A stretch of DNA of 40,343 bases from a virus (taxonomy: Duplodnaviria > Heunggongvirae > Uroviricota > Caudoviricetes), in IMG/VR virus record IMGVR_UViG_2718218360_000013; one strand, given 5' to 3'. The position numbers were made by a program, and so were the translations under genes. Below the pieces are notes generated by a model that worked only from the letters and a program-made list of their open reading frames with translations, had not been told where the DNA came from and did no database searches. Positions 8,429 through 35,776 of the stretch are shown here, in pieces. Position 1 is the stretch's first letter, and the number at the start of each line of letters is the position of its first letter.

Positions 8429-8862
8429 TCCCCCTTCATATCAGCATAAAAAATCATCGGATGTCTGCTTCCGTCCGGCAGGGTGATTTTCACGGAAAGC
8501 GAAAGGCGAGCATGCCCCACACGCATGGCATGACATACCACGGATGTGGCAGCACCGCTTTTATGCAGCCACGCCAGCGCTTCATCAGCATAGGCCTGTG
8601 CACGGCTGACCACGGAGGACAGCGTCTTTTCACGGCTTAACAGCCAGAGACGGGAGCCAACGGGGCGCTCCCGGAAACTGTCTCCCCACCATCCCCGACG
8701 GTCACGGGTGCCGTCAGGGATTTCATCGGAATCCAGCGCCCGCCTGTCCGTAAACAGTGAAATAATGACCGCAGTCAGCAGGCTGTTATCCGTCAGAAGA
8801 TCTGCGCCGTTCAGTTGCAGGGAACCGCAACCCTGATCCCAGACGACAGCAATATCAGCCAT
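8425..8862 (-). CDS. Mu gp46-like baseplate protein
   Basis: Internal ATG at 8862 chosen (MADIAVVWDQG...) to avoid a 200-nt overlap with the upstream gene. Confidence 0.6.
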   Translation of the reverse strand: MADIAVVWDQGCGSLQLNGADLLTDNSLLTAVIISLFTDRRALDSDEIPDGTRDRRGWWGDSFRERPVGSRLWLLSREKTLSSVVSRAQAYADEALAWLHKSGAATSVVCHAMRVGHARLSLSVKITLPDGSRHPMIFYADMKGE

Positions 8863-9469
8863 TCTCTGGTCCTCCCGTTTTGCTGCCTTCACCGTTATCG
8901 TGATGCACATGACCTGAATAGGTGATCCCGGCAATAACCGCTTCGGACATCGTGAACGTCCCCTGTGATCTTCCGGTGCCGTCAATGGACACATTGCCTT
9001 TGACATGCAGGTTCTTATCCACTGTGACATTACCGGTAAAGTGAGCCTCCGGTGTATCCACCTGAACACCTTCATCGGCGTAAATCTCCAGCGTCTTACA
9101 GGTCACAATGATCCGGCCGTTCTTTGTCAGACGTATACGGTGCCCCTCATGGTGATACACGCCGGTATCTCCGGCGGTAAGTCCGGTCGGGCGACTGCGG
9201 CGGTCTTCCACCACAAGCACCACGGCCTGATCCCGTTGTCCGCCAGCACAGGCCAGAAAAACTTCCGCACCAGGCAGGGGGACGCTGATTTGCCCGTACT
9301 GCTGGGGGCGTTCAACGTCATCAAAGGTTTCACCATCCATACCGGTGATTTGCACATTCTGGATTTTCAGCGTGTCCGTTGTGCCGGTCAGTACACCACG
9401 CCCGAACAGCAGACGAACACCCCGCATCACGGGGGCCAGAAGGCGGCTGATGACTTCGTCATTCATCAT
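8855..9469 (-). CDS. Baseplate assembly/spike protein (gpV-like, Mu gp45-like)
   Basis: 204 aa; position between the gp44-like and gp46-like genes. Confidence 0.6.
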   Translation of the reverse strand: MMNDEVISRLLAPVMRGVRLLFGRGVLTGTTDTLKIQNVQITGMDGETFDDVERPQQYGQISVPLPGAEVFLACAGGQRDQAVVLVVEDRRSRPTGLTAGDTGVYHHEGHRIRLTKNGRIIVTCKTLEIYADEGVQVDTPEAHFTGNVTVDKNLHVKGNVSIDGTGRSQGTFTMSEAVIAGITYSGHVHHDNGEGSKTGGPENG

Positions 9470-10583
9470 TGAATTTAATCCCCTGTTTTTTCATCTGTGC
9501 CCGCACGAAGGCGTCCACGTCACCCGCATTTCCGCTTCCGCTGTTTCCCGGCTCTGCCGGAACAATAAAGCCGTCACGGGGTGCCAGAATCAGACGGGTG
9601 GTTTCGCCGTGATTTGCATCCAGCGAAAACTCCACCTGACAGACAAGAAGATCACGCTCTTCCACTCCGGTGCGGGGAGCCGTGACAGCCGTCAGCAGGT
9701 TGATATCCCACAACTGGCCGTTCTCCCGAAACCAGTGCCGCACGGTGGCTGTCAGGCGCACAGAGCGGGCAACCGCCCGGCGCATTTCCCGGACAGCCCT
9801 CTGGCGTGCACCGTCTGCATCAACAGCATGATCCGCCAGCACAATTTTCGGTCTGTAACGGTGGATGGCACTGTCTGTCACCGTACCAACGGGTGCGGCC
9901 AGCGTTCCGGCTGTCAGTGCATCCCCGGCATGACCACCACCACGCCCGTGCCCCCGTACACGGTATTCACTGTGGCGCAGACGGTGATCCACGTTGTGAT
10001 CCAAATCCAGCAGATTTTCGCCCAGCGTCAGCGTGTCGCCACGCTGACTGCCGGCCTGAGTGAAAACCAGTTCACCGGCGGCATTACTGGTTACCAGGAC
10101 GCCTCTGTGTCTCGCGGCCCGTGTCAGCGCATCTGCCACGGTTTCTGAGTTTTCCAGTGTGAAGGTGGAAAAGGGCCGGGCTGCCGTTGCATCATTTACC
10201 TGCCAGCGCACCGTGACCCCGAACGGAGCACACAAATCTGAAGCAATGTGCTCCAGCGTGCGGTTCCTCCACTGGCTGCCCGGATGAATGGCTGAACAGT
10301 CCACCAGGTCACCGGTTTTATCCCGTCCGCTGAGCGTGATCTGAAAACGCGTGGCGCTGATGCGCTGCCGGACCTGATCCAGCCAGCCAGTGATCACAGG
10401 CTGACCGTCAATGCGCAATTCCAGAGACTGACCGGCACGGACGGATGACGGAAGGCGTACACCGGGCATCATTACCCCCAGTTCAAAGGAGCCCGCCAGA
10501 TGTTCAAGAGAGCGACGAACACTCACCGTCAGCCAGCCGGAAAAAATCTCACCGCCCAGATACAGTTCAACCCTGCTGCTCAC
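9459..10583 (-). CDS. Mu P (gp44)-like baseplate hub protein
   Basis: 374 aa; position after the N-like gene. Confidence 0.7.
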   Translation of the reverse strand: MSSRVELYLGGEIFSGWLTVSVRRSLEHLAGSFELGVMMPGVRLPSSVRAGQSLELRIDGQPVITGWLDQVRQRISATRFQITLSGRDKTGDLVDCSAIHPGSQWRNRTLEHIASDLCAPFGVTVRWQVNDATAARPFSTFTLENSETVADALTRAARHRGVLVTSNAAGELVFTQAGSQRGDTLTLGENLLDLDHNVDHRLRHSEYRVRGHGRGGGHAGDALTAGTLAAPVGTVTDSAIHRYRPKIVLADHAVDADGARQRAVREMRRAVARSVRLTATVRHWFRENGQLWDINLLTAVTAPRTGVEERDLLVCQVEFSLDANHGETTRLILAPRDGFIVPAEPGNSGSGNAGDVDAFVRAQMKKQGIKFNDE

Positions 10584-11937
10584 TAATCACCTCCACTGAA
10601 TGGCCTCCGGGAATGAACAGCGGATCAACAATACCGTTACGGCGCACAAAACGTTGCCAGCCGGTACTGTTCCCGGTGGCACGGTACAGGGTCACCAGTG
10701 CAGGCTCGGTGGTACGTACAGTCACTACTGTTGCACCGGGTAGCTGAACTCCCCGTGTATTCAGATCCTCTGTCAGTGCCAGTCTGGCATCACGAAGCGT
10801 CAGCGCCGTGGCGGTATACCCCTGCCCGGACAGTGTCATCACCTGCCGTTCGAGCGCTTCGCTTAAGTCACGGTTAATGCGCTGAAGATCAACTGAACTT
10901 TCCAGCCAGACAGGCCAGGTACGGTGGGCTGCGTCACTGTCCGGCAGGGTTTCCTGACTGAGAACCTGATCCAGCAGTTTTCCCACGGTCTGTGCCTGGG
11001 CCACCACGGCAGCACTCTGCATTACCGCCCGTATCAGACGAATATTCTTTTGTGCTGCCGGTGTCAGACCGATGAGAGTCTGCGGATTATCCTGCTCATC
11101 CAGCACGTAACGCAGGGAAGATAATGTCCTGTACAGTTGCGGCATTCCCTGAGAGAAGGCGGATGTCGTCCGGCCGATACTGCCACCGGGCCGGGTATTC
11201 AGGCCTCCTGAAGACAGTGACGGCAGCGATGGCAGGGTGATCAGGGCACTGAAAAGCCCCGCAAAAGATGAGGCCATGCGGGAAGGTGCTGTCAGTAATG
11301 CCGTGGCATTCCCTTTCAGCGCCGTGAACGTGGCAGTAAAGGCACTGATATCCTGTACAATCCCCATGCCGGAAACGGCATTTTCCAGGGCGGACACCTT
11401 ATCGCTGATGGTTTCGGTCATTGCCTGGACATCGTGCATTCCGTCAGAAATCACCGTCCAGCCCGCTTCCAGGGTTTCAAAAACCTTCCCGAGCGCGGTG
11501 GTACTCTTCTGCTCCAGAATGGCGGCCGTGTCCTGTGTGACAGCAGGTGCGGTATCATCACTTACCGGCGTGACATTAATGGTGAACTCAACCACGCCCT
11601 GTTCAGCAGCGTTATAACGACTTTCAAAGCTGTTTATCAGCACATTTAACGTGCCGTAATCCGGGTGAAGCAGCTCCCCGGCACCGGGAGCACGAAGGGC
11701 ATCACGCAGACGATTTCGCTGTGTCTGAACATCATCCCCCATCACAAGTACACTGAACGTAAATTCAGCCAGTTTAGGTCCCAGATCGTCTGCACCACCG
11801 GTTTCCCGTAACGGATATTCCCGACGGACAATGTTTCGCCCGCCACGTTCGCGCTGCTCACGCCAGACGAGGAACGGCACACCACGGAACGCACCACGAC
11901 CGTCACCAGAGGCCATAATTCCCTCCGTTCCAGACAT
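10567..11937 (-). CDS. Mu N (gp43)-like DNA circularization protein
   Basis: 456 aa; immediately downstream of the tape measure gene. Confidence 0.7.
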   Translation of the reverse strand: MSGTEGIMASGDGRGAFRGVPFLVWREQRERGGRNIVRREYPLRETGGADDLGPKLAEFTFSVLVMGDDVQTQRNRLRDALRAPGAGELLHPDYGTLNVLINSFESRYNAAEQGVVEFTINVTPVSDDTAPAVTQDTAAILEQKSTTALGKVFETLEAGWTVISDGMHDVQAMTETISDKVSALENAVSGMGIVQDISAFTATFTALKGNATALLTAPSRMASSFAGLFSALITLPSLPSLSSGGLNTRPGGSIGRTTSAFSQGMPQLYRTLSSLRYVLDEQDNPQTLIGLTPAAQKNIRLIRAVMQSAAVVAQAQTVGKLLDQVLSQETLPDSDAAHRTWPVWLESSVDLQRINRDLSEALERQVMTLSGQGYTATALTLRDARLALTEDLNTRGVQLPGATVVTVRTTEPALVTLYRATGNSTGWQRFVRRNGIVDPLFIPGGHSVEVISEQQG

Positions 11938-20171: not shown

Positions 20172-20347
20172 TCCGGCAGCATAAGCCGGGAATTTTCAGG
20201 GCGGGTTTTGCGGGATTTCAGGAAGTGCTTCCAGGGGAAAAATACAAAGGCGCTTCACGCAGATTTTAAAGCCCGTTAAATACAGGTTAGAAAATCACGA
20301 CACGCGCCTGAAGGGGGTAAGGTAATGCATTTGCATACCTTAAACAA
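20172..20347. promoter_or_regulatory. Central G-I intergenic region: candidate late promoter and strong gyrase site equivalent
   Basis: 176-bp non-coding gap near the middle of the prophage; near-palindrome AAGGTAATGCATTTGCATACCTT at 20319-20341. Confidence 0.35.
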
Positions 20348-26385: not shown

Positions 26386-26690
26386 TGCGTTTTTTTCCTT
26401 ACAGCCTGCTCCAGCAGCAGTTCGTTCTGATAGGAGACAGAGCGGAGCGTGGCGTTCGTGGTTTTCAGTTCACCCCGCAGGGTCACGATTTCCACATTCA
26501 GACGGTTGACCTCGGCTTCTGTCGGCAGTGACGACAGGCGGGTTTCCACCTTCTCAACGCGGTCGGAGAGTTTTTCAAAGGCCTCGCGGGGGACAAACGT
26601 TTTGCGCATCAGCGCCATGAATATCCCGCCAGCGGTTGCCGTCGCCGAAAGGATCGGCACAACATAATCTTTAACGATGCTGACCCACAT
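26382..26690 (-). CDS. Mu gp25-like membrane/coiled-coil protein
   Basis: 102 aa; N-terminal hydrophobic helix. Confidence 0.5.
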   Translation of the reverse strand: MWVSIVKDYVVPILSATATAGGIFMALMRKTFVPREAFEKLSDRVEKVETRLSSLPTEAEVNRLNVEIVTLRGELKTTNATLRSVSYQNELLLEQAVRKKTQ

Positions 26691-26898
26691 TACGGGCCTC
26701 CATGATGTTCTGGCAGTTCACACAACGGATGGCATCAGGCACAGCAACAAGACGTGCGGCGGGGATCTCTCCACCACAGTCCGCGCAGACACGTCTGCCC
26801 GGCGTATCCACTGCCTGGCGCTTACGTGTCAGCCGGTTACAAAGGGCGCGTTCTGATCCCCGCTCCATCACAGCCTGAGCACGATCTGAATCATCCAT
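26671..26898 (-). CDS. TraR/DksA-family C4 zinc-finger protein
   Basis: CADCGG...17 aa...CVNC four-cysteine pattern; 75 aa. Confidence 0.65.
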   Translation of the reverse strand: MDDSDRAQAVMERGSERALCNRLTRKRQAVDTPGRRVCADCGGEIPAARLVAVPDAIRCVNCQNIMEARNVGQHR

Positions 26899-26907
26899 AC
26901 CTTTTCC

Positions 26908-27279
26908 TTACTTCGTTTTTCCTGCCGGAACAGCAGGCGTTCCGGCCATATCAGTAAATTCATGTTGTCGCCGCGTCTCCAGACGACGAATACTGGCCTT
27001 GTCCACGTTGCAGTTCTTGATCACCGCCAGCAGTTGCAGGTTGTAAGTGACCGATGCCCCAAACGTGAACGGCTCCGGCGCAGGAGGGACTAGGCAGTCA
27101 GCCAGCCATTCAGCGGGGATCGGCACCGGCTTCACAGGCACGTATTTCACAGACGGCCCGGCGCACCCGATCAGCCACATCATCAGGAACAGGGGCAGAG
27201 GCCGCAGGCACTGCTGCCAGCGACCGGCGGACAACGCTCTGCTGCCCCTCGCTGTGCTGAATGTTCTGTTGTTTTTCAT
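26908..27279 (-). CDS. Putative o-spanin (outer-membrane lipoprotein), overlapping the i-spanin gene in another frame
   Basis: Lipobox-like LIGC after a hydrophobic stretch; Pro-rich mature part; start uncertain. Confidence 0.5.
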   Translation of the reverse strand: MKNNRTFSTARGSRALSAGRWQQCLRPLPLFLMMWLIGCAGPSVKYVPVKPVPIPAEWLADCLVPPAPEPFTFGASVTYNLQLLAVIKNCNVDKASIRRLETRRQHEFTDMAGTPAVPAGKTK

Positions 27280-27460
27280 TCGTGGCCGCCTCACTGATTT
27301 GTGAAATGAGTTGCAGGGTGTGCTGCTGATTTGCCAGCACCTGACGCGCCTCATCCCGCTCACGCACAAGCACCTGATTATTGTCTTCAAGGCGCTGCGT
27401 CTTCTGGTGCATTCCCCATATCGCGGCAACCAGTACAGCGATAATCCCCAGCGCCGCCAT
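27110..27460 (-). CDS. Putative i-spanin (N-terminal TM helix then coiled coil); start uncertain, alternative at 27610
   Basis: MAALGIIAVLVAAIWG followed by Gln/Glu-rich helical sequence; downstream of the endolysin. Confidence 0.5.
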   Translation of the reverse strand: MAALGIIAVLVAAIWGMHQKTQRLEDNNQVLVRERDEARQVLANQQHTLQLISQISEAATNEKQQNIQHSEGQQSVVRRSLAAVPAASAPVPDDVADRVRRAVCEIRACEAGADPR

Positions 27461-27572
27461 GCACGCCCCGGCAATCAGGGCCGGTAAGGCATTATTCACC
27501 GCAGCCACAGGACACCCCGTAACAGCAGTACCGCACACAGCAGCGCTATCATGATCGGTCGCCAGAAGCGGT

Positions 27573-28073
27573 TCAGACTTTCGGCAAATCGTAGCGACAT
27601 AACCATTCATCCGCCGAACGGCGGGCCTCAAGGCCGGGGAGCTTCACCCCCTTTGAATAAATCCAGCGGATATACTGCTTACAGGACGCGGGCATCTGCC
27701 CGGCATTGATCAGGCGCAGAAGCGTGGAGTTGCGAAAGTTCGTTTCACCGGCCCAGAAGATCCACGAAGCCAGCGCCACCGTCTGACCACGGGTAAGCGG
27801 CACCTGAACACGCCGATCAATGGCCGCAAAGGCCCATTTCATGTCCTTTTCCAGTAGTTCCAGGCATTCTTCATCCGTCAGGGTCATACCCGGTTTCACA
27901 TCCGGGCCGGTATGGCCGTAACAGATGGTGGGTGTACCGGTGGGATCGATATACGTGGAGTTTTCTTTCCCTTCCCAGTAACCGGTGTAATGCGTGGCAA
28001 TCGTGAACGTCCCGGCACCGGCCAGAACAAGGGCAATCAGCTTTTTACGCAGTGGTGCGGGGAGTTTTGGCAT
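27573..28073 (-). CDS. Endolysin, T4-lysozyme-like with signal-anchor-release N-terminus
   Basis: Gly/Ala-rich weakly hydrophobic N-terminus LIALVLAGAGTFTIA; catalytic E-x8-D-x5-T pattern in YWEGKENSTYIDPTGTPT. Confidence 0.8.
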   Translation of the reverse strand: MPKLPAPLRKKLIALVLAGAGTFTIATHYTGYWEGKENSTYIDPTGTPTICYGHTGPDVKPGMTLTDEECLELLEKDMKWAFAAIDRRVQVPLTRGQTVALASWIFWAGETNFRNSTLLRLINAGQMPASCKQYIRWIYSKGVKLPGLEARRSADEWLCRYDLPKV

Positions 28074-28144
28074 TGTTACGCTGTCTCATGATGTTCTCTG
28101 AGTCAGCGTAACGGTGAAGGAAAGGCGGCAGGCTTTGCGGAATA

Positions 28145-28570
28145 TCAGAAAAGTGGCGGTTGTGTTCTTGCCAGATGCAGACGGCGCTGTTCACGTATGA
28201 CGGTATAAATCTGGGTTTCTGACATCCGGTAATGGCGGCGAAGGGATTCAATTTTCTCGCCCCGGTCCCAGCGCGAAAATATCTCATTGTTTCGCAGCTC
28301 GGCAAAGAGAGATTCCCCGACCGGCAGGTAATAACCCCGTCCGCCCATATAGGCTGCCTGAGCCGCAGCCACCTTGCGTGCCAGTTTGCCGGCCAGTACC
28401 GGCTCAATCCCCTGACGCTGAAGTTCTGCGCCGGTGACTTCAACCAGTTCTGACAGGGTCCGCGGCCAGTTCTTTTTGAGAACATCATCAGGGATGTCAT
28501 CAAGGCGGTCGATAAGGGCGTGCAGTTGCTCACTGTCACCACCAAACATGCTCATCTGAGTTTCTGCCAT
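28145..28570 (-). CDS. Mor/C-family transcriptional activator
   Basis: C-terminal HTH RRHYRMSETQIYTVIREQRRL resembles Mu Mor/C; lies between gemA and the lysis genes. Confidence 0.7.
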   Translation of the reverse strand: MAETQMSMFGGDSEQLHALIDRLDDIPDDVLKKNWPRTLSELVEVTGAELQRQGIEPVLAGKLARKVAAAQAAYMGGRGYYLPVGESLFAELRNNEIFSRWDRGEKIESLRRHYRMSETQIYTVIREQRRLHLARTQPPLF

Positions 28571-28611
28571 ATCAGCCTCCGGTTCTCGCGTTCCCGGTAA
28601 GTTTAAAATAA

Positions 28612-28635
28612 AAATCCCGCGTTGTGGCGGGATTT
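28612..28635 (-). terminator. Terminator-like hairpin between gemA and the Mor/C gene
   Basis: Perfect 9-bp stem AAATCCCGC-GTTGTG-GCGGGATTT; minus-strand transcript continues UAUUUUAAAC. Confidence 0.45.
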
Positions 28636-28639
28636 GGGG

Positions 28640-29149
28640 TTAACGGGGAAGTGATTTTTCATACTGCCTGCAAACGGCGTCATACCCCATCAGCGTGCGT
28701 TCGGGCATTCCCATCGCGGCCAGCATTTTGCGGCGGTGCCATCGCTTGAGACGCTCCAGCACATCTGAGGCCAGGGCGGGGTGTTGCTCCAGCCACTGCC
28801 AGTTTGCCACACCTTCGCCGCCGTTTTGCGCGGCCGTCTGCGATTTCACCCAGCGGTTAAGGGCGGTTTCCGCACCATCAGAGATAAAGCCCTGCCGGTG
28901 CATCACCTTCCAGATGGCGCGAATTTTAGCGGTCACCGTACCCGGTTTTAAGGCCCGGTTAACCGGGTTCTGACGCACTTTAAAACCGCGTTTTTTGAAA
29001 ACATCCAGCACGCGGGATAACTCATCCGGTGACATATCCCGGCAGCTGGTTTTGCCGGTGACCGCCAGTAGTACGGATGTGTAGGTTTCATCATCCAGGG
29101 CAAGCTCGCGTTTTGCCACATGAATGGCAGATATCAGTTTCCCTCTCAT
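28640..29149 (-). CDS. gemA: GemA (Mu gp16)-like regulatory protein
   Basis: MRGKLISAIHVAKRELALDDETYTSVLL... matches the conserved N-terminus of Mu gp16-like proteins. Confidence 0.7.
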   Translation of the reverse strand: MRGKLISAIHVAKRELALDDETYTSVLLAVTGKTSCRDMSPDELSRVLDVFKKRGFKVRQNPVNRALKPGTVTAKIRAIWKVMHRQGFISDGAETALNRWVKSQTAAQNGGEGVANWQWLEQHPALASDVLERLKRWHRRKMLAAMGMPERTLMGYDAVCRQYEKSLPR

Positions 29150-29442
29150 GCTGTATCAACACTCCTGCGGATATGATAGGTATTATTTTCCCGATCGAGC
29201 TGAACCCGATACTCCGGAGGAATCACAAAAATATTAAAACCATCATCAGTTTTTATTCTTGAGTAGCATTCCCCCTTATGATATCTGGCCAGTGCATTAA
29301 TCAGAGAAGTCGCAGCCTGCCCAATCAGGTATTTTTTATGAAAAATACTGATAACTTTCCGGCACAGCCATCGTGTAATGACGAATGCACCGAAAAAGGA
29401 TGTGATATATAAATACCAGAACAACTGCGAACTACTGTCCAT
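29146..29442 (-). CDS. Hypothetical membrane protein (98 aa), low-GC cassette
   Basis: N-terminal TM helix LFWYLYITSFFGAFVITRWL; AT-rich codons. Confidence 0.45.
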   Translation of the reverse strand: MDSSSQLFWYLYITSFFGAFVITRWLCRKVISIFHKKYLIGQAATSLINALARYHKGECYSRIKTDDGFNIFVIPPEYRVQLDRENNTYHIRRSVDTA

Positions 29443-29629
29443 TATCTTTCTCCTTATTCAGTCTTCTGCGGCATTCGGCACAGTCATCAGGGCTTTCAAA
29501 TGTATCCGGCTCGCGATTATGAGCCAGATATAACCACCGTCCACATATACTGATATTTTCGCCTGTTTTAAAAAAATGATGCTTCCTGGCCATTAGTGGC
29601 CGCGCCCATCCAGCGGGTAGACTATTCAT
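29432..29629 (-). CDS. Hypothetical small Cys-containing protein (65 aa), low-GC cassette
   Basis: ICGRW ... CAEC spacing suggests a metal-binding knuckle; AT-rich. Confidence 0.4.
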   Translation of the reverse strand: MNSLPAGWARPLMARKHHFFKTGENISICGRWLYLAHNREPDTFESPDDCAECRRRLNKEKDNGQ

Positions 29630-29957
29630 TTGCTTTATCCTCCATGCTGGACAGAATCATATGTATTAATGTCGGGCGTGGAGATATACGCATTTCATTA
29701 AGCGTCTGAAGGGCAGCAACAGCTGCCTGTTTATCGGTGCCTTTGGCAATTTCAGCAAGAGAATGCACAATCCATAATGGGCTTAACGCTACGGCTGAAT
29801 GCAGAATCATGTCATCCATAATAATTTCTGGCATATCCCGTTTGTCACATTCTTTATCCATAAAAGAAACGATTTTTTCTGCATCTTCCGGTTTCATGCC
29901 TCCGGCGATGAGAATTTTACGATATTCATAAGACGATCTTAATTCAATACTCATCAT
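29622..29957 (-). CDS. Hypothetical protein (111 aa), low-GC cassette
   Basis: ORF with overlapping start/stop coupling to neighbours; no recognisable motif. Confidence 0.45.
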   Translation of the reverse strand: MMSIELRSSYEYRKILIAGGMKPEDAEKIVSFMDKECDKRDMPEIIMDDMILHSAVALSPLWIVHSLAEIAKGTDKQAAVAALQTLNEMRISPRPTLIHMILSSMEDKANE

Positions 29958-29969
29958 TCACCTGCCTGT

Positions 29970-30362
29970 TTAATCAGTTTCCAGTGCTTTGCTACGGGCA
30001 ACAGCCTCACACTCAAAAAATACCGACTCCGGCACACGCTCCTTTAATTCACGAACAAGAAAATCATTAACGAGTTCATGACGTCTTATATTTCTTTCCT
30101 TTTCCTCCTGGCGCAATACAGCAAGGCGGTATTCAACAGTCCGGCGTTGTTTCTGAAAGACAGCCAGTGCTTTTCTGGCAGAGTTACGCAATGTATCATC
30201 GCCACAGGGTTCGTATTCAAGCTGAAATTTAATCTCTTCAATGGTTTCTTTTATTTTTGCCAGCAAGCTAAGACAGTCGCTGATTGTCTTCAGTTTTTCA
30301 TTATCAATATAACTTCTCACGCATTCACCTCCCGTCATTCCGGTAAAGCTGAAATATGGCAC
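29970..30362 (-). CDS. Hypothetical coiled-coil protein (130 aa), low-GC cassette
   Basis: Charged helical repeats (EEIKFQLEYE, RLAVLRQEEKERNIRRHEL). Confidence 0.45.
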   Translation of the reverse strand: MPYFSFTGMTGGECVRSYIDNEKLKTISDCLSLLAKIKETIEEIKFQLEYEPCGDDTLRNSARKALAVFQKQRRTVEYRLAVLRQEEKERNIRRHELVNDFLVRELKERVPESVFFECEAVARSKALETD

Positions 30363-30646
30363 CAGTGCGTCACCTGTCCGTCCTCATCTTCAAGGCAGGC
30401 TCCGGTTTCTTCATCAATAAAAAAGCCTTCATACCCCATATGGCCGATGCGCAGTTCCTGTTGGTCACCATACTGAACAATCAGCACGACAGCCTCCATA
30501 TCAGGCGGGAAAGCATCATTCAGTGAATGCCAGGGATAACCGCGCAAATCCCCGAAATAAACACCGGTCAGCGTTCCGCCACAGACCGGCATTCCGACGG
30601 CACACACAAGGGGTTCATCTGATTCAACAAATAATGTCGTTATCAT
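30335..30646 (-). CDS. Hypothetical protein (103 aa)
   Basis: ORF in the early accessory operon. Confidence 0.45.
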   Translation of the reverse strand: MITTLFVESDEPLVCAVGMPVCGGTLTGVYFGDLRGYPWHSLNDAFPPDMEAVVLIVQYGDQQELRIGHMGYEGFFIDEETGACLEDEDGQVTHWCHISALPE

Positions 30647-31194
30647 GGCATTAATTCCCGTAATACAACATCTTCGGCAGTCCGACGACGGTGATAAATA
30701 AAACTCACCGTGCCCTCGGATAATTCAAATTTCTCGCCGATTTCCCTAAAGGTAAGACGCCGTGGTGATTCAGCATCCCGTAATTCACGAATAAGACGAA
30801 CATCATCGTCAGGTATGCGGGTGAAGGGCAGCAACTCTCCGTATTTTTTCATGCTTACGCCAATATATCGCGCCCGATTGTGGACAGAATCCCGGTCTCG
30901 CCCCAGATATTCTCCTATTTGCTTACCGGTCATTGTTCTGGCATTTTTTCGGATAAATTTATCTTCATCAGGTTTAAATCTGAGGCGTTTGCATTTGAGC
31001 AACTCCGGGTAAGTACCGCGTAATAAAACAATCCGGTTATGTACACCCCAGAAACTTCTTTTTATCCTGACAGCAATATCCTTAACCGGGGTGGATGGAT
31101 AAAGCGCAATCAGCAGCGCATCTTCTTCAGGTGTCCATGCGCGAACATGAGCGGGTGCACGGCCTTTTCTCCCCATGGGTTGTAATATCATCAT
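30643..31194 (-). CDS. Putative DNA-binding protein with up to three HTH-like segments
   Basis: WTPEEDALLIALY (Myb/SANT-like), TGKQIGEYLGRDRDSVHNRARYIG, LTFREIGEKFELSEGTVSFIYHRR. Confidence 0.5.
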   Translation of the reverse strand: MMILQPMGRKGRAPAHVRAWTPEEDALLIALYPSTPVKDIAVRIKRSFWGVHNRIVLLRGTYPELLKCKRLRFKPDEDKFIRKNARTMTGKQIGEYLGRDRDSVHNRARYIGVSMKKYGELLPFTRIPDDDVRLIRELRDAESPRRLTFREIGEKFELSEGTVSFIYHRRRTAEDVVLRELMP

Positions 31195-31197
31195 GCA

Positions 31198-31713
31198 TCA
31201 CCCCCTGACTCGCTTTTCAGCAGCATAAAACTCATCAGACAGAATTTCGGTCATTTTCTGATTTGCGGGTTTTACGCCGCACTCAAGGTAAATCACATCG
31301 TCAACGCAGAACCACTTCACAGGGCCAAACATGATTGCCGAGAAATCAATACCCAGCCAGAACAACAGTGCATCGGTTCTGGCATACGTGACGGGCGAAT
31401 ATTCACGCCACAGACTGTTAAGTTCGTCAGAGGCAACGCGCAGGGCTTTGGGAATACGTGATGTGCGCGGTGTGCAGCTCCAGCCATTCGACGCAGTCGG
31501 TTTTCGCCATAAGTCGCGATGAAAAGGATATTTGTCATCCATAAAGCGCAGCCCTTTAAAACAAAAGCCACTGATACCGGATACAAATACCGACCGGCAC
31601 GCAACATTCAGCACGGCCTCAAGGCGTTTTGCCTCATCCTTAACTTTCTGGCAGTCCTGCTGATATTTTTGCCACGCGGCCAGCGCGGAAGGGTTTGATG
31701 TTTTAAAGAACAT
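31198..31713 (-). CDS. Hypothetical protein (171 aa)
   Basis: ORF in the early accessory operon. Confidence 0.45.
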   Translation of the reverse strand: MFFKTSNPSALAAWQKYQQDCQKVKDEAKRLEAVLNVACRSVFVSGISGFCFKGLRFMDDKYPFHRDLWRKPTASNGWSCTPRTSRIPKALRVASDELNSLWREYSPVTYARTDALLFWLGIDFSAIMFGPVKWFCVDDVIYLECGVKPANQKMTEILSDEFYAAEKRVRG

Positions 31714-32246
31714 TACGCCACCTCCGCAGATATCCCGGCAGGCGCGGCCGTCCGGTCAACAATCAGGTAACGCAGAACGCGCGAGGTGATATTCCAGCCG
31801 CTTAAACCGCAGATAATGACACCCAGGCGTATGTCGATATACGCCATCACAAACTGGGGCACGCCTTCTTTCATGGCCTGCTCATCAACTTCAGCCACCA
31901 CATAAACGGTTTCACAGGTCAGAACGCCCTGAGCAAATTCCCACGCCATTGACGGAATATCATGCCCCTCAATCCACGGCAGGGATTTTCTGAAGCTGCA
32001 CCACTGAACATCATCAGCCGCACCTTCCTGGCTGCATTTGCGACGAACCGGCTGCACCGGGCGGGGACGCGGAATATCATAAAAACCGTTACATTCCGTC
32101 AGCACCCCGGCATCGACCGCATCACGCAGAAAATAAACCATCGAGGATGGCGGCATATTCATTTTTTCAGCCAGAATGCCGCAGGTCAGACGCCCGTAAA
32201 TACTCAGCCAGTTTTTAACCCCTTCAAGCACTTTTGCACCAATCAT
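31713..32246 (-). CDS. Hypothetical protein (177 aa) with possible N-terminal winged-helix
   Basis: ORF; LSIYGRLTCGILAEKMNMPPSSMVYFLRDAVDAGVL. Confidence 0.45.
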   Translation of the reverse strand: MIGAKVLEGVKNWLSIYGRLTCGILAEKMNMPPSSMVYFLRDAVDAGVLTECNGFYDIPRPRPVQPVRRKCSQEGAADDVQWCSFRKSLPWIEGHDIPSMAWEFAQGVLTCETVYVVAEVDEQAMKEGVPQFVMAYIDIRLGVIICGLSGWNITSRVLRYLIVDRTAAPAGISAEVA

Positions 32247-32249
32247 GAA

Positions 32250-32792
32250 TTATTCCTCCGTCAGCGCCACATATTCAGAATGTTTAATCTCCTGGCATTC
32301 TTCAGGAATACCCCCTTTTATTTCCCTGCCATAAGCGCCTACTTTAAACACCACGCACAGGGCATCACGGGAGAGCGACGGGGTCCACCAGGAGTCCATG
32401 TTAAACATGGAGGGGATTCTCATTACCCCCAGCTTTTCACAGAGCCAGACAAGGAAATCAGGACGCTTTCTTAACTCGCGTTCAGCGGCTTCAATCATTG
32501 CGGCAATCGCCGGTCCTTCAGGGCATGACTCATCAGGTCTGGCAATAAAGCACGGTCCGTCCCCGATAAAAGCCACATCATCGCGCTTACGCCAGCCCGC
32601 AGGCAGAGCACCAGAAAAATAAAACTCACTGATTACGTCCATGGCAAACGGCTTTAAGCGCAATCCGGCAGCGCCTGTATTTTTCAGTAATGCCCGAAGA
32701 ATACTGTTGCGTAGCGGTAAAACAGTCTGTTGATATTTGGTGAAATATTTATTTGTCTGCACACGGTCTAATTTGAAATAAAAATATGCCAT
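32250..32792 (-). CDS. Hypothetical protein (180 aa)
   Basis: ORF immediately downstream of gam. Confidence 0.45.
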   Translation of the reverse strand: MAYFYFKLDRVQTNKYFTKYQQTVLPLRNSILRALLKNTGAAGLRLKPFAMDVISEFYFSGALPAGWRKRDDVAFIGDGPCFIARPDESCPEGPAIAAMIEAAERELRKRPDFLVWLCEKLGVMRIPSMFNMDSWWTPSLSRDALCVVFKVGAYGREIKGGIPEECQEIKHSEYVALTEE

Positions 32793-32889
32793 ATATCCTG
32801 TTCCTTATTTTCAGTTTACAGGCGCAGGCAGTCCCCTGACGCGAGCGCCATACTTAAAACGATGTGATATTTAAAGATTTAATGCGGTG

Positions 32890-33420
32890 TTATTTATTCA
32901 GTCCGGCGTCCTGTTCAAAAGGCTCGACATAAAAACTTTCAGCGCCTTTATTCACCTTAATACCGGCAATGCCTTTCACTGCATCCGGCTCCGCTAGGAC
33001 CGCTTCCTTGTTCACTTCCTCTTTCGTGCGGATGAATCGCTCAAGCCCCATACGGCGCAGCATTTCAATCACACCTTCCACATCACGGCTGACGCTGCAT
33101 GATGGATTTCCCAGCCGCCATGACACTGTTCCGGTGGTCAGATTGGCTGTTTTGGTTTTGCCGCCGTTCGTCAGCTCATCGCGGTTGGTTTTGCACCAGT
33201 CCTGAATCCCCTTAAAAAGCACTTTGATTTCTTTTTTAAGGTTTTCAATCTGCGGCGTATAACGGGCGGTGATTTCTGCCACTTCATCATTCATCGCCGT
33301 TTCCAGCCGTAGCGCCTCTCGCTGAATATCGCCCAGGGTACGGATATCGCGGCTGACTTCTTCGCGGGTCTGCGGTGCAGCCTCGGCTGCGGCCTTTAAT
33401 TTTGTAACACGTTTAGCCAT
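32890..33420 (-). CDS. gam: Gam host-nuclease inhibitor (Ku-like DNA end-binding protein)
   Basis: RLETAMNDEVAEITARY...ANRDELTNGGKTKTANLTTGTVSWR...RFIRTKEEVNKEAVLAEP closely parallels Mu Gam. Confidence 0.85.
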   Translation of the reverse strand: MAKRVTKLKAAAEAAPQTREEVSRDIRTLGDIQREALRLETAMNDEVAEITARYTPQIENLKKEIKVLFKGIQDWCKTNRDELTNGGKTKTANLTTGTVSWRLGNPSCSVSRDVEGVIEMLRRMGLERFIRTKEEVNKEAVLAEPDAVKGIAGIKVNKGAESFYVEPFEQDAGLNK

Positions 33421-33431
33421 TTTGTTTTTCC

Positions 33432-33725
33432 TTATTGCAGTGTGCCTGATGCTTTATGCACGCGGTGGCGTTTAATGATGGCATCCGCCCCAAAAGCCTG
33501 TACAGATGCCTGAAATTCCGCTGAGAGAAACTGAATAATTTCAGGACTGTGATACTGGAGAATACTTGCATAAACGCCACAGAGTGACGTCGGCCTGTTA
33601 TTCGTATCACGTTCTGTTTTTACATCCACACCAATCTTTTCATGCACTTCAACACAGTCATTGCCTGCCGGTTTTTCGTCATGCGAAACATGCTTAAATT
33701 CAAAAATAACGCGTACTTTGCTCAT
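33432..33725 (-). CDS. Hypothetical protein, paralogue B (N-terminus MSKVRVIFEFKH)
   Basis: Shares N-terminal ~14 aa with the upstream gene; AGGGG SD-like sequence 8 nt upstream. Confidence 0.5.
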   Translation of the reverse strand: MSKVRVIFEFKHVSHDEKPAGNDCVEVHEKIGVDVKTERDTNNRPTSLCGVYASILQYHSPEIIQFLSAEFQASVQAFGADAIIKRHRVHKASGTLQ

Positions 33726-33729
33726 GGAA

Positions 33730-34002
33730 TTACCCCTGCTGATTAAATTCATTACCTTTAATAACCCCGGAACGCATGCTCATATCTTTCATGAGCGCAC
33801 TGGCTTTCATTGCCACAAGTTCAGCAAAGTCTCTGCTTTCCGCGAGCATAACCACCCCAAAAATCATGGCGGGTCCATCACCTTTCTGCTTTATCCCGGT
33901 TGAACGTATGTCCAGACTTACCCCCATGCGCACTGTTCCATCAGCGTTTTTATGGATAACGTGCTCCTTGTATTCGAAAATAATGCGTACGACTTTACTC
34001 AT
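33730..34002 (-). CDS. Hypothetical protein, paralogue A (N-terminus MSKVVRIIFEYKEH)
   Basis: Tandem paralogue of 33432-33725. Confidence 0.5.
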   Translation of the reverse strand: MSKVVRIIFEYKEHVIHKNADGTVRMGVSLDIRSTGIKQKGDGPAMIFGVVMLAESRDFAELVAMKASALMKDMSMRSGVIKGNEFNQQG

Positions 34003-34280
34003 CCTCTGGTCCTCGTTCTGTTTGGATAACTGACCCGGCGTCTGACCTCACGGCAGAACCGAATCATGGCATTAAAGGCTTCTTCCTCCGTCACCGCTTC
34101 CGGTATCCCCGGAACCAGTAACTGCTCCTGTTCATCACGTCCATGACGCGCCATAACCTCAATCACATGCCGTACCGTGGCAGGCTTTCCGGCAACTATC
34201 GGCAATGCACCTTCCGGCAGGACGTAACCAAACTCAATAAGACCACTCGACCACGCCCATGCAATGAGATTTTTTTTCAC
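33999..34280 (-). CDS. Hypothetical early protein (93 aa)
   Basis: ORF with start/stop coupling. Confidence 0.4.
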   Translation of the reverse strand: MKKNLIAWAWSSGLIEFGYVLPEGALPIVAGKPATVRHVIEVMARHGRDEQEQLLVPGIPEAVTEEEAFNAMIRFCREVRRRVSYPNRTRTRG

Positions 34281-34281
34281 C

Positions 34282-34548
34282 TCACACCTCCCAGTAAACC
34301 GTGCAGCCGCTGATGCGGGTGGCCTTCACACGGCGGCGCAGGCCGTTGGTCTGTATGGTGATTTCAATTTCACCGGTTCCCTGCACGTTGCCTACCGGCG
34401 GCGTGGTTTTCAGTGCAAAACGTTGCGGATAGCGCTTACTGCGTTCCAGTACCGCACCGGCAAGTTCGGTCAGACGGCGCGCGCTGTTCAGGGAGTCGAA
34501 TAAATTCATTTTGTTACCGCAGGATTGCATATTCATATAACACCTCAT
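34282..34548 (-). CDS. Hypothetical early protein (88 aa)
   Basis: ORF. Confidence 0.4.
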   Translation of the reverse strand: MRCYMNMQSCGNKMNLFDSLNSARRLTELAGAVLERSKRYPQRFALKTTPPVGNVQGTGEIEITIQTNGLRRRVKATRISGCTVYWEV

Positions 34549-34776
34549 TTAGCTGACTTGTTTCGCACCAACAGAACGGCATATTCCGCTGTAAACGTCT
34601 GTCGCACCTTCGCGATCAAGTCCGGCAGATATCACCATTCGTGTGCGGTCATTAAATTCAAAAAGTAAATCGCCACATTCTTTATTTTCGGCCAGTGAAA
34701 TCACCTTCACGTTATCGAAATTAACCAGGTAAAAGCGTCCGTAAATATCAGGAATATTAAATACCGCCATAATCAC
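34549..34776 (-). CDS. Hypothetical early protein at the position of Mu kil (75 aa)
   Basis: Immediately downstream of the B-like gene with ATGA overlap. Confidence 0.4.
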   Translation of the reverse strand: MIMAVFNIPDIYGRFYLVNFDNVKVISLAENKECGDLLFEFNDRTRMVISAGLDREGATDVYSGICRSVGAKQVS

Positions 34777-35705
34777 ACCTGTGAGAGTAATTCAGGGTTG
34801 GTATAAACCTCTTTAAAGGCCGCATTAATATGTTTTTCTGTCAGCGCCGCGCCTTCACCGCTGGCGGTGAGCCACGCCTGGTTAAGCGTATGTGTCAGAA
34901 CGCGTAACGCTCCCGGCTTTTCAGCGATAGCCTGCATGACGGCCAGCTCGGCCTCACCACTGATCCCCCACGCCCTGGCAATGGCCAGCACATCCGCCTT
35001 TTTGGCCTTGCGAAGTTGTTTTGTACGGGCAAGACGGCTGAACAGGCGCGATAAATCATCAAAGGCGCGGCGTCCACCTTTAAACAATCCGCGCGGGTTA
35101 CCAATAAGCACCATCCCGATCCCCGTGGCGTCCTGAATTGCCCGGAGTTGCTCCAGACCGTCAATACCCAGATGATCCGCCTCATCCACAATCACCAGTC
35201 CACGCGTTCCCATCAGGCGACGGCGGATGGCGCGGGATAATGCCCCTTTGTTCGCGCGGGTGTAATCAATCCCCAGCGCATCGGCCAGCTCCAGCAGACA
35301 CTCCGTGACGCTGGAGTGCGCGGGTGACAGGGTGATCATCCAGGTGTTTGGTTGCTCCTGGCAGTAATTACGGGCAGTGGCCGTTTTACCCACACCCGGT
35401 ACGCCCACAATAACGTTAATACAGCCCATCAGACGAACCGCCTGAAACAGTGCGCGCAGCTCCTGGACTGTCTGCGTTTCCACAAACTGCGGCGGTTCCG
35501 GCAGTGCGCTTTGTTTATTCCAGTTTTCATACCAGGAACGCAGGGAAGCAGCCACAGCGGCGTTATCGCCTTTATATTTCCCCTTGCGGAAAGCCGATAA
35601 TGTGCCGTCGGAAATTCCCGCCTCTCTGGCGATGGCATACTGCGTCAGTACGCCGCCATCAATAAGTTCATCAATGGTCTTGATTACATCGTTAATATCA
35701 GTCAT
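34773..35705 (-). CDS. MuB-like transposition ATPase
   Basis: Walker A GVPGVGKT and Walker B LVIVDEADHL; N-terminal HTH; directly after the transposase gene. Confidence 0.9.
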   Translation of the reverse strand: MTDINDVIKTIDELIDGGVLTQYAIAREAGISDGTLSAFRKGKYKGDNAAVAASLRSWYENWNKQSALPEPPQFVETQTVQELRALFQAVRLMGCINVIVGVPGVGKTATARNYCQEQPNTWMITLSPAHSSVTECLLELADALGIDYTRANKGALSRAIRRRLMGTRGLVIVDEADHLGIDGLEQLRAIQDATGIGMVLIGNPRGLFKGGRRAFDDLSRLFSRLARTKQLRKAKKADVLAIARAWGISGEAELAVMQAIAEKPGALRVLTHTLNQAWLTASGEGAALTEKHINAAFKEVYTNPELLSQV

Positions 35706-35776
35706 ATTATTAACCTCTCATTTGATACCTTGTTTAATCAAATAACCTGAGTCGCCGCTCGGGTTATTTTTTTATT

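Follow-up and report, generated by a model that had tools for sequence, protein, structure and literature searches.

A phage early-operon protein with three Myb/SANT-like repeats is related to Mu gp9 and shared by Mu-like and P2-like prophages

The early operon of a Mu-like prophage found in Shiga-toxin-producing Escherichia coli contains a gene for a 183-aa protein with several helix-turn-helix (HTH) segments, in a genome that carries just one gene of the Mor/C activator family. What this protein is, and whether it is the functional counterpart of the apparently missing second Mor/C-family gene, as a first-pass annotation had suggested, are the questions that this locus raises. The window, i.e. 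the whole stretch of 40,343 nt that was analysed (IMG/VR record IMGVR_UViG_2718218360_000013), is a Mu-like prophage of the Sp18 type, found in E. coli O157 and in other strains that produce Shiga toxin. Sp18 has been described as an apparently intact Mu-like prophage (PMC2669165), and the window region is 95–97% identical to the segments labelled "inserted Mu-like phage" in two Stx-phage records. The minus strand codes, in this order, for a ner-like gene, A, B, a kil-like gene with small ORFs, Gam, a 180-aa ORF, and the gp11 and gp12 homologues, followed by the 183-aa gene, five small unknown ORFs, GemA, a hairpin and the single Mor/C-family gene, and then by lysozyme, the late genes, the invertible segment and com-mom. 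The 183-aa gene is a member of the early (Pe-type) operon (Table 1).

Table 1. Features of the 183-aa gene, its product and its surroundings in the window
Feature	Position	Strand	Remarks and evidence
Only Mor/C-family gene in the window	28145..28570	-	Nearer Mu C (39%, E 1e-33) than Mor (27%, E 7e-13)
Perfect hairpin/dyad AAATCCCGC-CACAAC-GCGGGATTT, then T-run	28612..28635	-	Terminator-like; between gemA stop and Mor/C ATG
GemA/gp16 homologue	28640..29149	-	Final gene ahead of the hairpin; comparison with Mu proteins
Downstream 103-aa gene, phrog_6925	30335..30646	-	No assigned function; start overlaps stop of 183-aa gene (ATGA); ORF and PHROG
CDS of 183-aa three-repeat HTH protein	30643..31194	-	Stop codon 30643-30645; phrog_323, dN/dS
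Repeat 3, residues 121-183	30646..30834	-	Sigma-70-region-4-like HTH plus C-terminal helix; matches Mu gp9 second module
Repeat 2, residues 67-120	30835..30996	-	Duplicate of repeat 1 (FKPDED...); matches Mu gp9 first module; model, profiles
Repeat 1, residues 19-66	30997..31140	-	Myb/SANT-like three-helix module, begins WTPEED; Pfam, model, profiles
N-terminal basic arm, residues 1-18	31141..31194	-	pI 12; G11 and H16 invariant; low model confidence
Mu gp12 homologue (54% identity)	31198..31713	-	Directly upstream of 183-aa gene; comparison with Mu proteins
Shine-Dalgarno AGGGGG	31201..31206	-	6 bases 5' of ATG; overlaps 3' end of gp12-like gene; read from sequence
Mu gp11 homologue (67% identity)	31713..32246	-	Pfam Gp11_C; comparison with Mu proteins

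The ORF of the 183-aa protein runs from ATG to stop on the minus strand, and the plus-strand frame over the same positions is interrupted by many stops. A gap of 3 bases separates its ATG from the end of the gp12-like gene, and the ATGA at 30643–30646 joins its stop to the start of the next gene. Close homologues, at 42–100% identity, come from E. coli, Salmonella and Citrobacter alone, and comparison with four relatives at 73–92% amino-acid identity gave a dN/dS of 0.14–0.23; on these two grounds, the ORF is a real gene under purifying selection. The same DNA occurs, letter for letter, in E. coli O157 FDAARGOS_293, where the product is annotated as a "DNA-binding protein" (WP_000973023.1), and the DNA of the gene is present in 228 of the 5,426 complete E. 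coli genomes. The protein is already catalogued, as a RefSeq "DNA-binding protein" and in PHROG 323, and various sources have named its close relatives "DNA-binding protein", "AsnC family protein" or "SANT/Myb domain-containing protein". New here are the division of the protein into three Myb-like repeats, its tie to Mu gp9, the sharing of the gene between Mu-like and P2-like early operons, and the evidence against a role as a substitute for Mor.

An AlphaFold2 model built on an alignment of 19 family sequences predicted three three-helix bundles (mean pLDDT 83.5), with helices at residues 22–31, 37–43 and 48–59 in repeat 1, at 75–84, 90–97 and 101–110 in repeat 2, and at 129–140, 149–156 and 160–169 in repeat 3, the last of which is followed by a C-terminal helix at 173–181. 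Residues 1–13 were modelled with low confidence, and at a pTM of 0.52 the model does not fix how the three modules are placed relative to one another. The repeat period is 53 residues, as marked by W20, F73 and about residue 126/127. Profile-profile comparison of slices of the family alignment matched repeat 1 to repeat 2 with 98% probability (E 2e-13) and repeat 2 to repeat 3, in register, with 57% probability (E 1e-4); judged by these profiles, repeats 1 and 2 clearly arose by duplication, and repeat 3, which keeps the register of repeat 2, is a diverged copy. Repeat 3 is also the most conserved part of the family, with the signatures DVxLIRxLRD and TFxEIGEKF. The segments WTPEEDALLIALY and LTFREIGEKFELSEGTVSFIYHRR correspond to residues 20–32 and 147–170 of the protein, respectively. 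The whole chain is basic, with a pI of 10.17 and 38 K+R against 25 D+E.

As to family, residues 2–182 aligned with positions 80–256 of the phrog_323 profile ("transcriptional regulator, D5-like") with an E-value of 6.3e-58 and 197.8 bits. As to fold, single repeats of the predicted model superpose on Myb, SANT and GcrA DNA-binding domains, and the three-helix fold in tandem repeats of ~52–53 aa, in register with R2R3, is that of the Myb/SANT class. Comparison of the family profile with PDB sequences recovered c-Myb R2R3 (1h88_C; E 7.5e-6, profile positions 19–106, two repeats in register) and the two-HTH CRISPR-repeat-binding protein 2lvs (E 3.7e-4), while a single-sequence phmmer search of the 183-aa protein against PDB sequences returned only noise. 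The Pfam Myb models (PF00249 / PF13921) remained below their gathering cut-offs for this sequence (16.9 bits vs 24.4 and 22.9), and PF00249 Myb_DNA-binding matched 16 of the 19 family members at E <= 0.01 (best 6.3e-9). From the tryptophan triad of Myb, W20 alone is invariant; aliphatic residues (I40, L58) take the place of the other two tryptophans, and repeat 2 opens with F73, where some relatives have W. Because the triad is not kept, we call the modules Myb-like and do not regard the protein as a canonical Myb. It further differs from c-Myb and the R2R3-MYB proteins (PDB 1h88, 6kks) in being phage-borne, in scoring below the Pfam cut-offs, and in having a third repeat that resembles sigma-70 region 4.

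The character of repeat 3 would suit a protein that mimics sigma-70 region 4, docks on RNA polymerase or a sigma partner, and redirects host transcription without a specific DNA site. The Sigma70_r4 model (PF04545), whose cut-off is 24.1 bits, reached 23.3 on residues 145–169 and matched 12 of the 19 family members at E <= 0.01, and helices 1–2 of repeat 3 are the most conserved across the Mu-like and P2-like members, as expected for a conserved host partner. In addition, TFREIGEKFELS resembles, by eye, the stretch TLEEVGKQFDVT of sigma-70 region 4.2. However, region-4-like matches are commonplace in HTH proteins, that stretch of repeat 3 matches the AsnC-type, MarR and HTH_24 models as well, and sigma region 2 is missing (TIGR02937 18.9 bits vs 42.9); we consider such a mode of action highly unlikely. 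The label of a sigma factor was rejected on the same two scores, the lack of region 2 and a length of just 183 aa. Three more labels were tried and rejected. For AsnC/Lrp, the HTH_AsnC-type model scored 21.5 against 27, no AsnC_trans_reg (RAM) domain was found, and the model consists of all-helical HTH repeats. For GcrA (PF07750), neither the 183-aa protein nor any of the 19 family members gave a match, the likeness being confined to the fold of one repeat. For the Mor/C family (PF08765), there was no Mor HMM match at E <= 10, and phmmer gave E 2.4 vs Mor and 2.6 vs C. Taken together, the AlphaFold2 bundles, the repeat profiles, the Pfam matches of the family and the fold superposition bear out the multi-HTH protein of the early accessory operon described in the first-pass annotation, together with its very probable DNA binding; the Myb-like first segment and the sigma-70-region-4-like last segment also hold across the family.

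The same annotation saw no obvious equivalent in Mu, and here a comparison that covered the 22 products annotated in the initial 11 kb of the Mu genome gave a different answer. Mu gp9/E8 (Mup09, 99 aa) aligned with residues 66–167, i.e. with repeats 2 and 3 (BLASTP 32% identity, E 7e-8), scored 38.5 bits with the profile of the 183-aa family, and itself belongs to phrog_323 (E 5.2e-29). The two proteins are thus homologous, and the genes of both belong to the semi-essential early region of their Mu-type phages. Mu gp9, however, has two repeats and is encoded upstream of gam, whereas the window protein, lengthened at its N-terminus by a further Myb-like repeat and a basic arm, is encoded after the gp12 homologue. 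In Mu, D108, SfMu and the Yersinia Mu-like phages, which belong to the classic Mu lineage, gp9 is kept just upstream of gam; a gp9-type gene was sought upstream of gam in the window and was not found. This finding and the homology together identify the 183-aa protein as the gp9 relative of its own lineage. A search of the literature for the function of Mu gp9/E8 and for "D5-like" regulators returned nothing relevant.

Beyond these phages, an exhaustive profile search recovered about 13,000 proteins at E <= 0.001, including some 25 full-length representatives with three repeats and many long ones in which the repeat occurs 3–10 times; among the multi-repeat relatives, P0034 also bears helicase-type domains and P0079 exceeds the Pfam GcrA cut-off. 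The BFVD models that matched include numerous phage multi-HTH proteins of the uncharacterised kind, endonucleases, entries labelled "Myb-like" or "GcrA", and a "D5 protein" of a Vibrio phage, which may be the source of the "D5-like" label in PHROG. A scan of genome contigs for relatives yielded just two distant loci and added nothing. Phage endonucleases of the HNH and other types have DNA-binding modules built from kindred repeats (phrog_1891, phrog_6156; mycobacteriophage and BFVD matches), as would be expected if the 183-aa protein were what is left of a homing endonuclease, a DNA-binding module that persists with no role of its own. The purifying selection on the gene argues against a relic, as do its full-length conservation and fixed operon position in two phage families, its carriage by 228 E. 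coli genomes, and the lack of any nuclease remnant nearby, and we find this origin barely credible as an account of the present gene.

The genomic contexts of the family were compared at 66 IMG/VR loci with a relative of the 183-aa protein. Mu-like loci, all near the lineage of the window, make up 43 of them, and wherever enough sequence was available they share the order Gam, (180-aa ORF), gp11, gp12, 183-aa gene, (variable small ORFs), GemA, single Mor/C gene, lys. Across these loci the identity of the 183-aa protein falls from 73 to 54 and 48%, in step with that of GemA (89/62/57%) and of the Mor/C protein (83/67-55/55%). This parallel divergence indicates that the 183-aa gene is a long-standing member of the lineage and not a recent insertion. 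Another 20 loci (L048-L065, L067, L068) are P2-like prophages with an integrase, a CI-type repressor, GPA and a portal gene; their full-length orthologue, at 42–48% identity, lies in the early operon before GPA, and no Mor/C homologue was found in the stretches examined. A third backbone, Mu-like with DUF3164, is represented by two loci (L066, L069), in which the gene lies shortly before GemA and a weak Mor-family match is present. The family also includes an orthologue, annotated as "DNA binding protein", in the isolated Citrobacter phage Shae_phiSM (Peduoviridae).

In all 20 P2-like loci a gene for a D12 N6-adenine methyltransferase ends at most about 0.6 kb upstream of the orthologue, even though the D12 enzymes have themselves diverged to 53–58% identity, and in 8 of the 20 a homologue of a C5 cytosine methylase follows directly (fragmented in L063); DUF4406 or Ash-family genes are neighbours in some of these loci. 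Such company would fit a factor linked to DNA modification, which reads or regulates methylation in the manner of GcrA or as a controller of modification genes, and travels with methyltransferase cassettes. Other observations point the same way: mycobacteriophage matches to repeats 1–2 fall within or next to genes whose annotation is DNA methylase or HNH endonuclease, the superposition of one repeat on the GcrA DNA-binding domain gives 1.0 A, the multi-repeat relative P0079 passes the Pfam GcrA cut-off as noted above, and the window phage carries com-mom. However, the neighbours in the window and the other Mu-like loci are gp11/gp12 homologues and small unknown ORFs with no methyltransferases among them, and the Shae_phiSM orthologue has no methylase neighbour either. 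Moreover, kinship among the P2-like loci means that their synteny may be merely inherited. GcrA itself (PDB 5yiu) has one module and a sigma-interaction domain, whereas the window protein has three modules and no such domain, and the family gives no Pfam GcrA match. A role tied to DNA modification is therefore, in our judgement, unlikely.

The remaining question concerns the Mor/C cascade. The first-pass annotation was right that the window contains just one Mor/C-family gene, and this gene is MuC-like. Its product has QMSMF at residues 5–9 and QPPLF at the C-terminus, which correspond to the two reported clamp-binding motifs of MuC, QHDLF and QPDLF (PMC12867686). The core of the hairpin ahead of the gene, CCCGC-N6-GCGGG, forms a 16-bp element of two 5-bp inverted repeats, and this 5-N6-5 geometry is that of the Mor-dimer site in the Mu Pm promoter, which spans −51 to −36 and is centred at −43.5 (PMC4390567, PMC4287176). 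Mu has AAAGCCGG-TTAAT-CCGGCTTT immediately 3' of the mor stop. The hairpin is kept in all Mu-like relatives, down to loci in which the 183-aa protein retains 48% identity. At one Mu-like locus an IS lies inside the hairpin, and at four loci (L020, L022, L044, L045) reverse-strand cargo lies between two copies of it. The insertion of cargo between hairpin copies indicates that the sequence just 5' of the hairpin is not required, and a separate promoter for the Mor/C gene therefore probably lies at the hairpin or downstream of it.

A sigma-70 scan of 26500-39200 did not locate this promoter, as it found fewer sites than shuffled sequences contained (9 vs 14.2). With the dyad centred at −43.5, a −10 at Mor-type spacing could be read by eye in the relatives with 72–73% identity (TGTAAT at about −12 to −7); the window itself does not fit, having AACGCG there. 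The half-site AATCCCGC was also tried, and rejected, as an activator site shared across the window: it gave 60 matches with at most one mismatch against 45.6 ± 6.8 expected, a number reached by 3 of 100 shuffles, and its exact copies near 20210 and 2109 are not part of the same dyad.

If the 183-aa protein took the place of Mor, it would be an early-encoded, non-homologous activator of the terminator-insulated MuC-like gene, and would rebuild the early-middle-late cascade with a Myb-type factor. The locus is laid out as such a scheme would have it: the sole Mor/C gene is C-like, a strong hairpin with a T-run separates it from the gemA stop, and the cargo between hairpin copies makes read-through from the early promoter unlikely and a promoter of its own necessary. 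A single Mor/C gene is found in every Mu-like locus that has a three-repeat protein and enough downstream sequence. Among the ORFs scanned, the 183-aa protein is the only predicted HTH protein encoded between B and the insulated Mor/C gene, which leaves room for a role in the cascade. Mor/C proteins and the 183-aa protein are also alike in being small phage-encoded HTH proteins from the same genome region; yet Mor and C act as dimers with one HTH each and bind palindromes, whereas the 183-aa protein has three HTH modules in one chain and no sequence relationship to them.

The distribution of the family and the nature of the dyad speak against this scheme. Mu, D108 and SfMu retain gp9; Mu itself has both Mor and C. 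The P2-like orthologues have no Mor/C homologue to control in the stretches examined. Mu-like phages with a single Mor/C gene are common. Immediately 5' of the Mor/C gene, the one element that has been kept is a perfect palindrome with the geometry of a Mor-dimer site, and it is invariant down to the 48%-identity loci, whereas the putative recognition (third) helices of the 183-aa protein vary between lineages. A palindrome suits a Mor/C dimer and not a three-repeat monomer, suggesting autoactivation by the Mor/C protein. The palindromic dyad, the presence of gp9 in Mu and the P2-like orthologues thus leave the idea of a Mor substitute, and with it that of a counterpart to the missing Mor/C gene, unsupported; we rate it as very unlikely.

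The reading that we prefer, and consider probable as a whole, is that of an accessory product of the early operon, whose single chain carries three Myb/SANT-type modules in tandem and uses them to bind double-stranded DNA. DNA binding is the firmest part of it, being very probable; Myb/SANT folds, in particular SANT domains, can also mediate protein contacts, and for this reason DNA binding is called probable and not proven. A transcription-regulatory role is a tentative suggestion, about which we are nearly evenly divided. Both c-Myb R2R3 and the archaeal multi-HTH CRISPR-repeat-binding (Cbp) proteins read extended asymmetric sites through successive grooves of the DNA. By analogy with them, the 183-aa protein would bind as a monomer, with its modules inserting their third helices into one major groove after another, and the three modules would together read an extended asymmetric site of roughly 15–20 bp. 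The analogy has its bounds: Cbp1/Cbp2 (PDB 2lvs) are archaeal chromosomal proteins that act on CRISPR repeats and are only distantly related to the window phage protein, for which no repeat array was found as a candidate target.

In this mode of binding, the variable recognition helices would give each phage lineage its own specificity, and the invariant surface of repeat 3 (helices 1–2; DxDVxLIRxLRD, TFxEIGEKF) may form a conserved contact with the DNA backbone or with a host partner, e.g. RNA polymerase. Synthesised early after induction, the protein could modulate transcription or another DNA transaction of the phage or the host. The core Mu cascade could presumably do without it, and the protein would not be a replacement for Mor.

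Through these results a conserved early gene of Mu-type phages can be placed, both by predicted structure and by descent. Mu gp9/E8 and its three-repeat relative form one family, which is also present in P2-like prophages of E. coli, Salmonella and Citrobacter, and its carriers include prophages from strains that produce Shiga toxin. Within the wider set of relatives, the Myb-type tandem repeat emerges as a portable DNA-binding unit of phages, which is found free-standing, in arrays of up to ten copies, or fused to helicase-type or nuclease domains. A tempting but unsupported tie to the Mor/C cascade is removed, and the conserved dyad before the single MuC-like gene becomes the place to study how two-tier Mu-like cascades start.

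The hairpin located between the gemA-like stop codon (28640) and the ATG of the Mor/C-family gene (28570) was kept in all Mu-like relatives, down to those sharing 48% identity in the 183-aa protein with three tandem Myb-like HTH repeats. Its 16-bp core contains two 5-bp inverted repeats, a geometry shared with the Mor site of the Mu Pm promoter, and a dyad resembling this hairpin directly follows the mor stop codon in Mu. The hairpin may terminate early transcription, serve as the site at which the single Mor/C protein activates its own expression, or do both. In this protein, QMSMF (residues 5–9) and QPPLF (residues 137–141), both kept in relatives, match the reported N- and C-terminal beta-clamp-binding motifs of MuC (PMC12867686).

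In four relatives the hairpin was present twice, with cargo genes carried on the reverse strand between the two copies, and in a fifth it was interrupted by an IS-type transposase; the site between the gemA-like and Mor/C genes resembles an insertion hot spot for morons.

Features identified in the prophage and in related IMG/VR loci (L numbers, loci encoding a relative of the 183-aa protein)
Feature	Source	Position	Strand	Remark
com-mom module	prophage	1-738, about 690-890	minus (1-738)	
Gin-type recombinase	prophage	4259-4819	minus	
Sole Mor/C-family gene	prophage	28145-28570	minus	MuC-like product
Hairpin AAATCCCGC-CACAAC-GCGGGATTT + T-run	prophage	28612-28635	minus	perfect hairpin
A-rich direct repeat, AAYAGAACAAACAAAAGAAC-like	prophage	38180-38203 and 38551-38592		
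Inverted pair, 16 nt	prophage	38212-38227 and 38569-38584		
Duplicated hairpin + cargo	L020	about 8830-9546		
Duplicated hairpin + cargo	L022	about 2566-3356		
Duplicated hairpin + cargo	L044	about 9140-9774		
Duplicated hairpin + cargo	L045	about 9105-9648		
IS-type transposase in hairpin	L024	about 9950-11462		
Example P2-like locus	L061	4993-5958, 5937-6455, 6452-7471		

One copy of the A-rich repeat lies in the intergenic region separating the divergent ner-like and repressor-like genes, and the repressor-like ORF itself contains three overlapping copies. Together with the 16-nt inverted pair, these repeats may constitute operator or IHF-type sites.

The com-mom module was retained at the right end of the prophage. 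The Gin-type recombinase gene adjoins alternative tail-fibre genes, which indicates that this prophage, like Mu, carries an invertible segment; part of the tail-fibre end is shifted by 47–48 bp compared with the RefSeq strain from which the annotation was taken.

The ~50-aa Myb-like HTH repeat also occurred as 3–10 tandem copies in hundreds of long proteins (300–1,340 aa), represented by P0033–P0179 in our library of representative proteins; in one of these, P0034, the array was fused to ResIII/Helicase_C helicase-type domains.

In P2-like prophages, a D12 N6-adenine methyltransferase gene was found just upstream of the orthologue of the 183-aa protein in 20 of the 20 loci (L048–L065, L067 and L068). 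A C5 cytosine methylase homologue lay directly downstream in 8 of these loci (fragmented in L063), and DUF4406 or Ash-family genes were occasional neighbours. The cluster may represent an island for DNA modification within the P2-type early operon.
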